From NCBI RefSeq assembly GCF_054482525.1, contig NZ_CM137006.1: a stretch of DNA of 64,000 nucleotides. One strand, written 5' to 3'. The notes beneath the pieces are model-generated. The model saw only the letters and a program-made list of their open reading frames with translations, did not search any database and was not told the DNA's origin. A program made the position numbers and the translations under genes. Below are positions 27,534-63,935 of this stretch, in pieces. The number at the start of each line of letters is the position of its first letter. The stretch's first letter is position 1.

Positions 27534-27875
27534 ATGATGAAAAAAAGTATTCTGGCGTTTCTGTTACTCACCAGTTCTGCAGCGGCGCTGGCGGCACCGC
27601 AGGTGATTACCGTCAGTCGTTTTGAAGTGGGTAAAGACAAATGGGCATTTAACCGCGAAGAGGTGATGCTGACTTGCCGACCGGGTAATGCTTTGTATGT
27701 CATTAACCCAAGTACTCTCGTGCAGTATCCGTTAAACGATATTGCACAAAAAGAAGTCGCCAGCGGGAAGACTAAAGCCCAGCCCATATCGGTGATTCAG
27801 ATTGATGATCCCAACAATCCCGGCGAAAAAATGAGTCTGGCACCGTTTATAGAACGAGCTGATAAACTCTGTTAA
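27534..27875 (+). CDS. yebY: DUF2511 periplasmic protein YebY
   Basis: 113-aa ORF with signal peptide [20 protein letters not shown]; third gene of the yobA-yebZ-yebY cluster. Confidence 0.85.
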
Positions 27876-27904
27876 TTACCTAAAATAGCCTTTTGATTTC
27901 CAAT

Positions 27905-27947
27905 AAAAAACCGCCTCAGTTCTTTCACCAGAACAGGCGGTTTTTAA
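27905..27947. terminator. Bidirectional intrinsic terminator (yebY and antisense sRNA RyeA)
   Basis: AAAAACCGCCTCAGTTCT…AGAACAGGCGGTTTTT: GC-rich imperfect hairpin flanked by an A-run and a T-run. Confidence 0.6.
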
Positions 27948-28032
27948 CATTTAAGCTAATGACCCCCACGCTTTTTATTGACCATTTTGCACGCAAACTG
28001 GAAAACCTGGCGTCGTCATCTATTCTTAAAGG

Positions 28033-28135
28033 GCAAGGCAACTAAGCCTGCATTAATGCCAACTTTTAGCGCACGGCTCTCTCCCAAGAGCCATTTCCCT
28101 GGACCGAATACAGGAATCGTGTTCGGTCTCTTTTT
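28033..28135 (+). ncRNA. sdsR: RpoS-dependent small RNA SdsR (RyeB)
   Basis: GCAAGGCAACTAAGCCTGCATTAATGCCAACTTTTAGCGCACGGCTCTCTCCCAAGAGCC… ending in a hairpin plus T5 matches the SdsR sequence as I recall it; it lies between yebY and pphA as in E. coli. Confidence 0.75.
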
Positions 28136-28269
28136 ATCTGTTAAAAGCCAGAAGCATTCCTTTCGCTGACTTTATAGTCAACCATAACACACACTCTACT
28201 GTCTGAGTCCAGCATTTTTTAACATTCCTGTTAAGATTATGTGATCTTTAGCGCGGGAGGAAAATATTG

Positions 28270-28926
28270 ATGAAACAGCCTGCGCCCGTTTATCAGAGAA
28301 TTGCGGGTCATCAATGGCGACATATCTGGCTTTCAGGCGATATACACGGTTGTCTTGAGCAGTTGCGCCGCAAATTATGGCATTGTCGTTTTGATCCGTG
28401 GCGAGATTTACTTATCTCAGTGGGAGACGTTATCGATCGTGGGCCGCAAAGTTTACGTTGCCTGCAGTTACTGGAACAACATTGGGTTCGTGCGGTAAGA
28501 GGCAATCATGAACAGATGGCGATGGATGCGCTGGCATCCCAGCAGATGTCTTTATGGTTGATGAATGGCGGCGACTGGTTTATTGCGCTGGCAGATAATC
28601 AACAGAAACAAGCGAAAGCGGCGCTGGAAAAATGTCAGCATTTGCCCTTTATTCTTGAAGTACACAGTCGCACCGGCAAACATGTTATTGCTCATGCCGA
28701 TTATCCAGATGATGTTTATGAATGGCAAAAGGACGTTGATTTGCATCAGGTCTTGTGGAGCCGCTCGCGATTAAGTGAACGCCAAAAAGTGCAGGGAATT
28801 ACAGGTGCTGATCATTTCTGGTTTGGTCATACACCGTTGCGCCATCGCGTGGATATTGGCAACCTGCATTATATTGATACAGGTGCTGTCTTTGGGGGCG
28901 AACTGACTGTTGTGCAATTGCAATAA
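28270..28926 (+). CDS. pphA: Serine/threonine protein phosphatase 1 (PPP-family metallophosphatase)
   Basis: ATG at 28270 gives MKQPAPVYQRIAGHQWRHIWLSGDIHGCLEQL… with GDIHG and GNHE metallophosphatase motifs; 218 aa. Confidence 0.9.
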   Translation: MKQPAPVYQRIAGHQWRHIWLSGDIHGCLEQLRRKLWHCRFDPWRDLLISVGDVIDRGPQSLRCLQLLEQHWVRAVRGNHEQMAMDALASQQMSLWLMNGGDWFIALADNQQKQAKAALEKCQHLPFILEVHSRTGKHVIAHADYPDDVYEWQKDVDLHQVLWSRSRLSERQKVQGITGADHFWFGHTPLRHRVDIGNLHYIDTGAVFGGELTVVQLQ

Positions 28927-39592: not shown

Positions 39593-40270
39593 TGCACAGA
39601 AAACCCCCAGCTAGGCTGGGGGTTCCGGAAAGCTTTCAGCTTTGAGCCAGTTATTAAAACCCCTTTTGATTTGTTAAAACACCTTGCGGTCTGGCAACTG
39701 CAAGTGTCAAACAAGAAATCAAAAGGGGGTCCCAATGGGGAACGAAAAGAGCTTAGCGCACACCCGATGGAACTGTAAATATCACATAGTTTTTGCGCTA
39801 AAATACCGAAGACAGGTGTTCTACAGAGAGAAGCGTAGAGCAATAGGCAGTATTTTGAGAAAGCTGTGTGAGTGGAAAAGCGTACGGATTCTGGAAGCTG
39901 AATGCTGTGCAGATCATATCCATATGCTTGTGGAGATCCCGCCCAAAATGAGCGTATCCGGGTTTATGGGATATCTGAAAGGGAAAAGCAGTCTGATGCT
40001 TTACGAGCAGTTTGGTGATTTGAAATTCAAATACAGGAACAGGGAGTTCTGGTGCAGAGGGTACTACGTCGATACAGTGGGTAAGAACACGGCGAAGATA
40101 CAGGATTACATAAAGCACCAGCTTGAAGAGGATAAAATGGGAGAGCAGTTATCGATTCCCTATCCGGGCAGCCCGTTTACGGGCCGTAAGTAACGAAGTT
40201 GGATGCAAATGTCAGATCGTGTGCGCCTGTTAGGGCGCGGCTGGTAAGAGAGCCTTATAGGCGCATTTGA
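39593..40270 (+). mobile_element. IS200 insertion sequence (boundaries approximate)
   Basis: Contains an IS200 tnpA; left end carries the two characteristic stem-loops (CCCCCAGC-TAG-GCTGGGGG at 39604-39622, and an RBS-sequestering helix pairing 39660-39672 with 39716-39729 just before the ATG); IS200 lacks terminal inverted repeats, so the ends are estimated. Confidence 0.8.
39735..40193 (+). CDS. tnpA: IS200 transposase TnpA (HuH Y1 transposase)
   Basis: ATG at 39735 gives MGNEKSLAHTRWNCKYHIVFALKYRRQVFY…HIHMLVEIPPK…RGYYVDTVG…; 152 aa; near-identical to IS200 TnpA as recalled. Confidence 0.9.
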   Translation: MGNEKSLAHTRWNCKYHIVFALKYRRQVFYREKRRAIGSILRKLCEWKSVRILEAECCADHIHMLVEIPPKMSVSGFMGYLKGKSSLMLYEQFGDLKFKYRNREFWCRGYYVDTVGKNTAKIQDYIKHQLEEDKMGEQLSIPYPGSPFTGRK

Positions 40271-43689: not shown

Positions 43690-44358
43690 TCCTTCCTCAA
43701 TCTTGAGTAACCCCGTCGTTGAAGGGTTACTCAATTCATCCTGATTATACGCACTGCCATGGTGCAACTGCTTCAAATTAAAACTCTGGTCTGACTTCAA
43801 ATAATTATCATATTATTTATTTGCGTAACGGGATATCAGAAAAAGATATTTAGCCCATTAATTTATTAGGATGTTTACATCGGATTTATGATTAAGTGTG
43901 GTATTATTTATTAGCGAAACGTTTCTCTCTTGATTTTTTTGCGCATTCATCAATTTTTCTTATTTTAAATTTACAATACCTTTGGCGATTGAGTTCTCTT
44001 TGGGGTGATTGATAGCCGTTAACTGACTGTTTTATGAGAAAAAGTGATATAACTTTTTATTCATTGCATAGCAGAAAATGTGATATTGCACGCACTATGT
44101 AATAACTTCTCCCATTGGCCTGGAACAACTGAACTTATTGAACTATGTTAGAAAATACGTCAGTTTAAGTATCTGCCTGAACTGGCAAGGTTAAGCACAA
44201 TGATATATCGGCGCGTATTCCGTTGCATAAGTGTGCAAAAAAAGTGGAAGACGTATCGAGATTTGTGCGTCTGATCGAGACATGTTTAAAAATGGCTTGC
44301 CATAATTAACGTTGTATGTGATAACAGATTTCGGGTTAAACGAGGTACAGTTCTGTTT

Positions 44359-44502
44359 ATGTGTGGCATTTTCAGTAAAGAAGTCCTGAGTAAACACGTT
44401 GACGTTGAATACCGCTTCTCTGCCGAGCCTTATATTGGTGCCTCATGCAGTAATGTGTCAGTTTTATCTATGTTATGCCTGCGGGCGAAGAAAACAATCT
44501 AA
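44359..44502 (+). CDS. yobF: Small protein YobF (first gene of the yobF-cspC operon)
   Basis: Read directly from DNA: ATG at 44359 gives [47 protein letters not shown], 47 aa; ends 12 bp before cspC. Confidence 0.8.
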
Positions 44503-44514
44503 GGAATTTTTCAA

Positions 44515-44724
44515 ATGGCAAAGATTAAAGGTCAGGTTAAGTGGTTCAACGAGTCTAAAGGTTTTGGCTTCATTACTCCGGCTGATGGCAGCAAAGACGT
44601 GTTCGTACACTTCTCCGCTATCCAGGGTAATGGCTTCAAAACTCTGGCTGAAGGTCAGAACGTTGAGTTCGAAATTCAGGACGGCCAGAAAGGTCCGGCA
44701 GCTGTTAACGTAACAGCTATCTGA
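44515..44724 (+). CDS. cspC: Cold-shock-domain protein CspC
   Basis: 69-aa [72 protein letters not shown]; RNP1/RNP2 motifs. Confidence 0.95.
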
Positions 44725-44770
44725 TCGAATCCACTGATCTGAAGTGTGAATACGCTTCAATCTCGCTATA

Positions 44771-44797
44771 AAGCCTCGCCGAATGCGAGGCTTTTTA
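44771..44797 (+). terminator. Intrinsic terminator downstream of cspC
   Basis: AGCCTCGC-CGAAT-GCGAGGCT hairpin followed by a T5 run. Confidence 0.8.
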
Positions 44798-44889
44798 CTT
44801 TGCTTTATCTTCGCTCCTGGCGTTCGGATATTTGCCCGCCGCGTGATTCGCGTTACACTTGCGGCCTTTAGTATCCTGCCGGAGTTGTC

Positions 44890-62204: not shown

Positions 62205-63890
62205 TTGAAGAAGGTTTGGCTTAACCGTTATCCCGCGGACGTTCCGACGGAGATCAACCCTGACCGTTATCAATCTCTGGTAGATATGTTTGAGCAGTCG
62301 GTCGCGCGCTACGCCGATCAGCCTGCGTTTGTGAATATGGGGGAGGTAATGACCTTCCGCAAGCTGGAAGAACGCAGTCGCGCGTTTGCCGCTTATTTGC
62401 AACAAGGGTTGGGGCTGAAGAAAGGCGATCGCGTTGCGTTGATGATGCCTAACTTATTGCAATATCCGGTGGCGCTGTTTGGCATTTTGCGTGCCGGGAT
62501 GATCGTTGTAAACGTTAACCCGTTGTATACCCCGCGTGAACTTGAGCATCAGCTTAACGATAGCGGCGCATCGGCGATTGTTATCGTGTCTAACTTTGCC
62601 CACACTCTGGAAAAAGTGGTTGATAAAACCGCCGTTCAGCACGTAATTCTGACCCGTATGGGCGATCAGCTATCTACGGCAAAAGGCACGGTAGTCAATT
62701 TCGTTGTTAAATACATCAAGCGTCTGGTGCCGAAATACCATCTGCCAGATGCCATTTCATTTCGTAGCGCCCTGCACAACGGCTACCGGATGCAGTACGT
62801 CAAACCCGAACTGGTGCCGGAAGATTTAGCTTTCCTGCAATACACCGGCGGTACCACTGGTGTGGCGAAAGGCGCGATGCTGACTCACCGCAATATGCTG
62901 GCGAACCTGGAACAGGTTAACGCGACCTATGGTCCGCTGTTGCATCCGGGCAAAGAGCTGGTGGTGACGGCGCTGCCGCTGTATCACATTTTTGCCCTGA
63001 CCATTAACTGCCTGCTGTTTATCGAACTGGGTGGGCAGAACCTGCTTATCACTAACCCGCGCGATATTCCAGGGTTGGTAAAAGAGTTAGCGAAATATCC
63101 GTTTACCGCTATCACTGGCGTTAACACCTTGTTCAATGCGTTGCTGAACAATAAAGAGTTCCAGCAGCTGGATTTCTCCAGTCTGCATCTTTCCGCAGGC
63201 GGAGGGATGCCTGTTCAGCAAGTGGTGGCAGAACGTTGGGTGAAACTGACTGGACAGTATCTGCTGGAAGGTTATGGCCTGACCGAGTGTGCGCCGCTGG
63301 TCAGCGTTAACCCGTATGATATTGATTATCATAGCGGTAGCATCGGTTTGCCGGTGCCATCGACGGAAGCCAAACTGGTGGATGACGACGACAACGAAGT
63401 ACCACCGGGTCAACCGGGTGAGCTTTGTGTCAAAGGACCGCAGGTGATGCTGGGTTACTGGCAGCGTCCGGATGCTACCGATGAAATCATCAAAAATGGC
63501 TGGTTACACACCGGCGACATCGCGGTGATGGATGAAGAAGGATTCCTGCGTATTGTCGATCGCAAAAAAGACATGATTCTGGTTTCCGGTTTTAACGTCT
63601 ATCCCAACGAGATTGAAGATGTCGTCATGCAGCATCCTGGCGTACAGGAAGTCGCGGCTGTTGGCGTACCTTCTGGCTCCAGTGGTGAAGCGGTGAAAAT
63701 CTTCGTAGTGAAAAAAGATCCATCGCTTACCGAAGAGTCACTGGTGACCTTTTGCCGCCGTCAGCTCACGGGCTACAAAGTACCGAAGCTGGTGGAGTTT
63801 CGTGATGAGTTACCGAAATCTAACGTCGGAAAAATTTTGCGACGAGAATTACGTGACGAAGCGCGCGGCAAAGTGGACAATAAAGCCTGA
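62205..63890 (+). CDS. fadD: Long-chain fatty acid-CoA ligase FadD
   Basis: TTG at 62205 gives (M)[32 protein letters not shown]…; 561 aa; AMP-binding motif [14 protein letters not shown]; the track ORF extends upstream in-frame. Confidence 0.93.
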
Positions 63891-63906
63891 GCGTTAAGTC
63901 AGTCGT

Positions 63907-63935
63907 CAGACGCCGGTTAATCCGGCGTTTTTTTT
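63907..63935 (+). terminator. Intrinsic terminator downstream of fadD
   Basis: CGCCGG-TTAATC-CGGCG hairpin followed by a T8 run. Confidence 0.8.

Follow-up and report, generated by a model that had tools for sequence, protein, structure and literature searches.

An intact K-12-type sdsR/ryeA small-RNA pair and an unoccupied attachment site between yebY and pphA in an Escherichia coli genome

In the DNA that we analysed, a stretch of 64,000 nucleotides from contig NZ_CM137006.1 of RefSeq assembly GCF_054482525.1 (hereafter, the window), 394 bp separate the yebY and pphA genes (positions 27876-28269), and this raises the question of what, if anything, is encoded between them. The 1.2-kb stretch around the locus is a 100% match to E. 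coli PCN033, and matches essentially all other complete E. coli genomes at 95-99%; judged by these matches, the window is Escherichia coli. In the PCN033 record, which was annotated by PGAP, nothing is annotated between yebY and pphA. The curated K-12 record lists two genes on opposite strands in the same gap, ryeA (b4432, 272 nt) and sdsR (b4433, 104 nt), and no CDS. The original prediction, which was made from the sequence alone, had proposed an SdsR/RyeA sense-antisense locus between yebY and pphA, and this identification is borne out by Rfam, by alignment to K-12, and by the promoters and terminators of both RNAs. We regard it as nearly certain that the locus is a canonical, intact E. coli sdsR/ryeA pair, with a circuit of the type known from K-12 and Salmonella, read-through into pphA and an empty attachment site (Table 1). 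The locus has already been described in full, and no mapped functional element in the window departs from the reference. The main value of this analysis is thus correct annotation: two RNA genes are left unannotated by PGAP, and the gap would otherwise look empty. The locus is also biologically important, as it encodes a core small RNA of the sigma-S regulon, a regulator of porins, efflux (tolC) and mismatch repair (mutS). Its links with an antisense RNA and with pphA, and its use as a prophage integration site, add to this importance, and all of these properties have been published for identical sequence.

Table 1. Features in and around the yebY-pphA intergenic region (window coordinates; arrows give the direction of minus-strand features)
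Feature	Position	Strand	Description
yebY CDS	27534-27875	+	ORF list; annotated by RefSeq in the identical PCN033 sequence; conserved gene upstream, which anchors the locus
Bidirectional intrinsic terminator	27905-27945	both	A6, stem-loop, T5; for yebY (+) and RyeA (-)
sdsR promoter, sigma-S type	27999-28029	+	-35 TGGAAA 27999-28004; 16-bp spacer; -10 TATTCT 28021-28026; discriminator TAA 28027-28029
sdsR (ryeB) small RNA gene	28033-28135	+	~100-103 nt; RF00111; K-12 identity; K-12 RefSeq start 1 nt earlier, 28032
SdsR Rho-independent terminator	28101-28135	+	11-bp stem 28101-28129 (5 G-C pairs), 7-nt loop, T5 28131-28135
Phage/island attachment site (attB)	28113-28135		Last 23 bp of sdsR; unoccupied in the window
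sdsR-pphA spacer	28136-28269	+	Leader of the sdsR-pphA read-through transcript; pphA Shine-Dalgarno GGAGG 28256-28260
ryeA (sraC) antisense RNA	28173->27903	-	271 nt; transfer of K-12 b4432
ryeA promoter, sigma-70	28189->28181	-	Extended -10 TGtTATGGT; TATGGT 28186->28181, at -13 to -8 relative to 28173, the start furthest downstream
pphA (prpA) serine/threonine phosphatase CDS	28270-28926	+	ORF list; RefSeq annotation

Sequence identity, coordinates, the anatomy of promoters and terminators, and conservation were all observed directly. We scanned the full window with Rfam at gathering thresholds and rescanned the interval permissively, and we transferred the curated K-12 features by globally aligning the K-12 interval with the window. 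The permissive rescan of the interval revealed nothing credible beyond the SdsR and RyeA models. A match to Listeria rliE (27853-27957), with 26.5 bits against a gathering threshold of 90 and an E-value of 0.059, was rejected as a chance match to the terminator hairpin.

On the plus strand, the SdsR_RyeB model (RF00111) matches positions 28036-28135 over its entire length (model positions 1-100 of 100), with 114.4 bits against a gathering threshold of 38 and an E-value of 1.8e-21. The K-12 sdsR gene maps to 28032-28135, and all 104 of its 104 nucleotides are identical in the window, so that the 5′ target-pairing region, where a mismatch would have weighed most heavily against the original prediction, is free of differences as well. 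Indeed, the window and K-12 have zero differences across 27966-28158. Using primer extension and 5′ RACE in K-12, Choi et al. 2019 placed the start of SdsR one nucleotide downstream of the old annotation. This revised start corresponds to position 28033, which is the coordinate that had been predicted; the predicted extent of SdsR (28033-28135, plus strand) thus agrees with the RF00111 match, the K-12 transfer and the revised start. The 3′ ends of K-12 SdsR were mapped at +100 to +102 (Choi et al. 2019), and these positions fall within the T-run of the predicted terminator. This terminator, which had likewise been anticipated as a hairpin followed by T5, was recovered by a terminator scan and by folding; at -15.8 kcal/mol, it is far more stable than shuffled sequence, and with its U-tail it forms a 3′ end of the Hfq type. 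The sequence in the window thus resembles K-12 sdsR in its RNA, its sigma-S promoter, its terminator, and its placement downstream of yebY and upstream of pphA. There is no difference within the gene, and the two descriptions differ only by the one nucleotide that separates the RefSeq 5′ end from the primer-extension start. RpoS-dependent expression in stationary phase, binding to Hfq, and repression of targets (tolC, mutS, yhcB and ompD) are known from experiments in K-12 and Salmonella.

An RpoS-type promoter upstream of 28033, which had been proposed as a check of the prediction, is present and complete. Frohlich 2012 lists the features that favour sigma-S as a C at -13, a G or T at -14, a C at -8, an A/T-rich discriminator and a 16-bp spacer. 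All of these features are found upstream of 28033: the T at -14 is position 28019, the C at -13 is 28020 and the C at -8 is 28025, and the discriminator is A/T-rich. Replacing the -10 hexamer TATTCT with CTCGAG abolishes SdsR in K-12 (Choi et al. 2019), and this hexamer is unchanged in the window. A scan of the interval for the sigma-70 consensus returned only one site, which is no more than expected by chance, and missed both real promoters, as can be expected for one promoter of the sigma-S type and another with an extended -10 element.

We also scanned species-representative genomes with a 24-base pattern from the SdsR core, which yielded at least 120 loci across Enterobacterales. Among the matches listed, which represent 114 species, SdsR and the columns of its promoter are ~90-100% conserved. 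Conservation is high from roughly -35 to the end of the T-run, and then collapses at once. A yebY homologue lies upstream of sdsR in all 111 of the listed loci that have more than 500 nt of upstream flank, and usually ends 143-162 nt before the SdsR start; the distance in the window, from the yebY stop (27875) to SdsR +1 (28033), is 158 nt, and is thus typical. Among the matches listed, only E. coli and some Citrobacter have pphA directly downstream.

The evidence for the antisense RNA requires more care. The SraC_RyeA model (RF00101) matches 28139-27995 on the minus strand over its full length, with 175.1 bits against a gathering threshold of 37. This match should not count as proof that RyeA exists. 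What the model covers (27995-28139) is no more than SdsR and the sdsR promoter in reverse complement, and because it mirrors these conserved elements, it also scores 170-172 bits in three Yersinia species (Y. artesiana, Y. proxima and Y. pekkanenii), although sraC was reported to be missing in Yersinia and to be poorly conserved (Frohlich 2012). The RF00101 match thus adds no independent support for RyeA, which, as we read the sequence, is instead supported by a promoter and start region identical to those of K-12, and by a terminator. K-12 ryeA transfers to an RNA that spans all of sdsR, with RyeA nucleotides 39-141 complementary to SdsR, and it comes with its own promoter and terminator, in agreement with the proposed antisense arrangement. 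The extended -10 block of the promoter is identical to that of K-12, where replacement of TATGGT with CTCGAG abolishes RyeA, and where RyeA is made by E-sigma70 only (Choi et al. 2019). This promoter block is common to E. coli and four Citrobacter species and is absent in E. albertii, S. enterica and C. youngae, a restricted spread in line with reports that sraC is poorly conserved. An alternative -10 element ~35 bp upstream, as reported for Shigella and Salmonella, was considered and rejected, as it has no convincing -35 element or spacer in the window. As a separate observation, the allele of the window at 28214 creates AAAAAT on the minus strand, at about this distance (~35 bp) upstream of the ryeA -10 element.

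The ryeA gene in the window and that of K-12 are alike in their start region, their -10 hexamer and extended TG, their full overlap with sdsR and their terminator hairpin. However, the RNA is 271 nt in the window and 272 nt in K-12, and seven differences distinguish the two: U6 in place of U7 at the terminator, a G-to-A change at 27935, and changes at 27953, 27958, 27965, 28159 and 28161. Upstream of the promoter, the window further differs from K-12 in having an A at 28214 (-41 of the ryeA promoter) and a C at 28228 (-55). All seven differences within ryeA fall outside the overlap with sdsR. Similarly, 5151 of 5425 E. coli genomes have no more than one mismatch in the 145-nt core. Since the core is nearly invariant and the differences from K-12 lie outside the overlap, selection acts on SdsR and its promoter. 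The whole 394-bp region, by comparison, is at least 99% identical in only 3 of 5426 genomes (PCN033, SCU-102 and 19KM1776), and on this sequence criterion the window belongs to a rare lineage. An exact 32-mer containing the A at 28214 is found in 175 genomes, versus 4591 with the K-12 allele (of 5426), which makes it a minority allele of ~3%.

Given seven changes confined to RyeA-only sequence, among them the shortened U-run and the altered stem at 27935, together with the minority allele at 28214, the level of RyeA or the efficiency of its termination could differ somewhat from K-12. A stronger version of this idea is that RyeA is functionally altered in this lineage, and that the changes shift the balance of RyeA and SdsR away from the behaviour of K-12. 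That every K-12 difference within ryeA lies in RyeA-only sequence, that only 175 of 5426 genomes carry the 28214 allele, and that the position of the sraC promoter and the length of the RNA vary among E. coli, Shigella and Salmonella (Frohlich 2012) are all compatible with such an alteration. However, the changes leave the mapped -10 element, extended TG, start region and terminator stem intact or even stronger (the stem is improved on both strands by the A at 27935), and position 28214, at -41, is outside the core promoter elements. We therefore consider a functional alteration of RyeA unlikely. It is slightly less likely again that the A at 28214, the change at 27935 and the shorter U-run could specifically retune the synthesis or termination of RyeA, and so shift the growth-phase timing of SdsR and pphA in the PCN033-type lineage. 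The reading that we favour remains a RyeA of the K-12 type.

The 3′ end of RyeA depends on the role of the hairpin downstream of yebY, which the original prediction had placed at 27905-27947 and suggested as a possible terminator of RyeA. The alternative is that this hairpin (27905-27945) terminates only yebY, and that RyeA ends elsewhere: near the 5′ end of SdsR, according to an older 249-nt annotation, or as an RNase III product of ~150 nt. There are reasons to entertain this alternative. The Rfam model of RyeA stops at 27995, earlier reports disagreed on the size of RyeA (‘some confusion in the literature’, Choi et al. 2019), an RNase III-dependent species of ~150 nt does exist (Frohlich 2012), and the A-run that precedes the terminator stem may merely lengthen the helix. 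However, all 20 of the 3′ RACE clones of K-12 RyeA end at +261 to +270 (Choi et al. 2019), which corresponds to the last base of the stem through the seventh U of the K-12 hairpin, and in vitro transcription with E-sigma70 gave a RyeA of ~270 nt that results from Rho-independent termination (Choi et al. 2019). The ryeA gene in the current RefSeq record of K-12, at 272 nt, also ends at the hairpin, and its 3′ end (1923337) maps to position 27903 in the window, just beyond the minus-strand U-run.

The properties of the hairpin in the window and in other species likewise fit a terminator that works in both directions. It folds on both strands (from 27905 or 27906 to 27945), with -19.8 kcal/mol on the plus strand and -20.7 kcal/mol on the minus strand (z = -7.7 and -5.5, respectively), and none of 200 shuffled sequences was equally stable; on the minus strand, it is followed by U6. 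The module of A-run, stem and T-run occurs at a fixed position, -127 to -88 from the SdsR start, in ~75 of 115 species among the matches listed, essentially all in Enterobacteriaceae, and was not found at the listed loci of Yersinia, Serratia, Rahnella and Dickeya. Of the 77 listed species that have the terminator, 75 keep both A-run and T-run, and joint retention of the two runs is expected for a terminator that is used in both directions. Furthermore, the hairpin shows covariation within Enterobacteriaceae: among the matches listed, 68 of 68 distinct sequences pair at stem position 5, with four types of Watson-Crick pair, and over stem positions 5-10, 291 of 408 cells are paired, compared with 229 +/- 7 (maximum 252) when partners are shuffled. 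Termination of yebY only is thus very improbable in our view, and the 3′ RACE, in vitro transcription and transferred 3′ end all support the original suggestion that RyeA terminates at this hairpin.

A final alternative is that the interval is conserved because it encodes a small protein. The interval contains ORFs of 63, 50 and 38 codons, the longest being an open plus-strand frame with a TTG start (27978-28169) that overlaps sdsR, and coding constraint on such a frame could be imagined; however, none of the three ORFs has a Pfam match, of 110 distinct homologous sequences among the matches listed, only 5 keep the 63-codon frame open for at least 60 codons and only 3 keep its start codon, the limits of conservation are the promoter and the T-run rather than the boundaries of an ORF, and the curated K-12 record has no CDS in the gap, so that we give this explanation practically no credence. 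The earlier view that the interval has no significant protein-coding signal is thus upheld by the Pfam result and by how rarely the frame stays open.

With these elements in place, we infer the expression, pairing, toxicity and read-through of the pair from experiments on identical or near-identical sequence in K-12 and Salmonella. In stationary phase and under stress, SdsR would be transcribed from the sigma-S promoter, starting at 28033, and would end at a leaky terminator (28131-28135). RyeA would be transcribed by sigma-70 from 28173 on the opposite strand, across sdsR and its promoter, and would stop at the bidirectional hairpin that it shares with yebY (27945->27905). This convergent transcription of ryeA would interfere in cis with the sdsR promoter; both the transcriptional interference at sdsR by ryeA transcription and the sigma-factor dependence were reported for K-12 by Choi et al. 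2019. Expression of RyeA that is reciprocal to that of SdsR, and mutual degradation of the two RNAs that depends on RNase III, have also been described (Choi et al. 2019; Frohlich 2012). Together, these effects would confine SdsR to stationary phase. Frohlich 2012, by contrast, argues that SdsR can be controlled without SraC.

Over-expression of SdsR is toxic because it represses yhcB, and the toxicity is relieved by RyeA; on this basis, the pair was described as an sRNA toxin with an sRNA antitoxin, and as a toxin-antitoxin system of a new type (Choi et al., PMC6610125). This label derives from over-expression experiments of one laboratory. The pair resembles type I toxin-antitoxin systems and cis-antisense sRNA pairs (of the GadY and ArrS class) in that the antisense RNA neutralizes its partner through an extended duplex and cleavage by RNase III. 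However, the ‘toxin’ in this case is a non-coding, Hfq-dependent, trans-acting sRNA rather than the mRNA of a toxic peptide, and there is no toxic ORF in the interval.

The original prediction treated pphA only as a flanking gene. In K-12, most pphA mRNA comes from transcription that starts at the sdsR promoter and passes through the SdsR terminator, and pphA is repressed by the transcription of ryeA, not by the RyeA RNA (Choi et al. 2019). By analogy, the SdsR terminator in the window is presumably leaky and permits read-through into pphA, and pphA is not a passive neighbour, but a gene that would be transcribed from the sdsR promoter. Since the pphA mRNA comes from this promoter, the spacer between sdsR and pphA would be the pphA leader, and since pphA would be supplied by read-through, it would come under the same control by sigma-S and ryeA. 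The spacer is contiguous in all 5425 of 5425 matching E. coli genomes.

Also beyond the original prediction, the 3′ end of sdsR doubles as a site known for prophage attachment. In the summary of Balbontin 2008 that is given in PMC7380047, the terminal ~23 bp of sdsR are described as an attachment site for a phage and an island, and these base pairs would have the same role here. In an occupied site, copies of the core would flank the foreign DNA at either end. The 23-bp core is present once in the window, where it runs straight into a spacer of the K-12 type. Since sdsR thus leads directly into K-12-type spacer, the attachment site is unoccupied in the window. The SdsR/SraC locus of Salmonella, including the PhiW104 site (Balbontin 2008; Frohlich 2012), is like that of the window in SdsR itself, in the sigma-S promoter and in the linkage to yebY, and the ~23-bp 3′-terminal att sequence of Salmonella is unchanged in the window. 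Salmonella differs in that its SraC promoter is reported ~35 bp further upstream and in that pphA is not adjacent, whereas the window has the K-12-type, unoccupied arrangement.

A second, partial match to the 3′ end of sdsR occurs in ~236 of 5425 E. coli genomes, with a break at ~28105-28110, within the SdsR terminator. We inspected a single one of these ~236 genomes, that of E. coli 2013C-3252 (locus L125, 8880-9170). In this genome, a lambdoid prophage with genes for a tail fibre, Lom and the NleG7 effector (nleG7) adjoins a retained ACAGGAATCGTGTTCGGTCTCTTTTT, which is followed by the ryeA promoter and pphA. The prophage thus parts sdsR from the ryeA promoter and pphA, and this arrangement is consistent with the attachment site that Balbontin 2008 described in Salmonella. 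In contrast to the window, S. enterica, E. albertii and C. youngae have other DNA after sdsR, in which part of the sdsR 3′ end recurs as a second, terminator-like copy. The sequences of E. albertii, S. enterica subsp. diarizonae and C. youngae are common to the three at ~+105 to +200 from SdsR +1, and include a terminator-like element, e.g. GTATTCGGTCTTTTTTGG, that resembles the 3′ end of sdsR. To judge by its sequence, this second copy is as expected for an old insertion at the attachment site. The arrangement in E. albertii is thus that of Salmonella rather than that of E. coli, and no pphA homologue was found within 1.26 kb downstream.

One E. coli genome has a different kind of insertion. 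In FDAARGOS_944 (locus L123, 2733-3501), an IS1A element is located inside sdsR, at the position of window 28043-28058, and is flanked on both sides by a duplicated TAAGCCTGCATTAATG (SdsR +11 to +26). At 16 bp, this duplication is unusually long for IS1. By this insertion, sdsR and ryeA are both naturally disrupted. We rejected recurrent insertion of IS1 into sdsR, as the exact junction is found in 1 of 5426 genomes and matches of lower identity are unrelated loci. A report that mentions a ‘single transposon insertion’ (PMC5495878) was also set aside, as ryeA figures in it only as a differentially expressed gene, with no insertion at the locus.

Several loci from the survey of species depart from the usual arrangement. 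In the same three Yersinia species named above, the cassette of sdsR and its promoter is inverted, so that it converges on the 3′ end of yebY, and in Izhakiella australiensis, sdsR is ~2.8 kb from yebY. These four species run counter to the published statement that sdsR always lies downstream of yebY. Enterobacterial sdsR was also found in two assemblies labelled as Bacteroidota, namely Chryseobacterium sp. 18061 (L085) and a metagenome-assembled genome of Flavobacterium psychrophilum (L086), and in two metagenome-assembled genomes labelled as Proteobacteria (L045 and L048). The Chryseobacterium assembly additionally contains yebY, at 71% identity, and a terminator of the Enterobacteriaceae type. 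Such occurrences most likely reflect contamination or mislabelling of public assemblies.

Elsewhere in the window, three other matches, all on the plus strand, reach the gathering thresholds of Rfam: the Hfq-binding sRNA STnc490 (39602-39725, 146 bits), sroD (63849-63934, 115 bits) and a thermoregulator leader of the cspA type (44339-44799, 138 bits), which is probably the 5′ UTR of a cspA paralogue.
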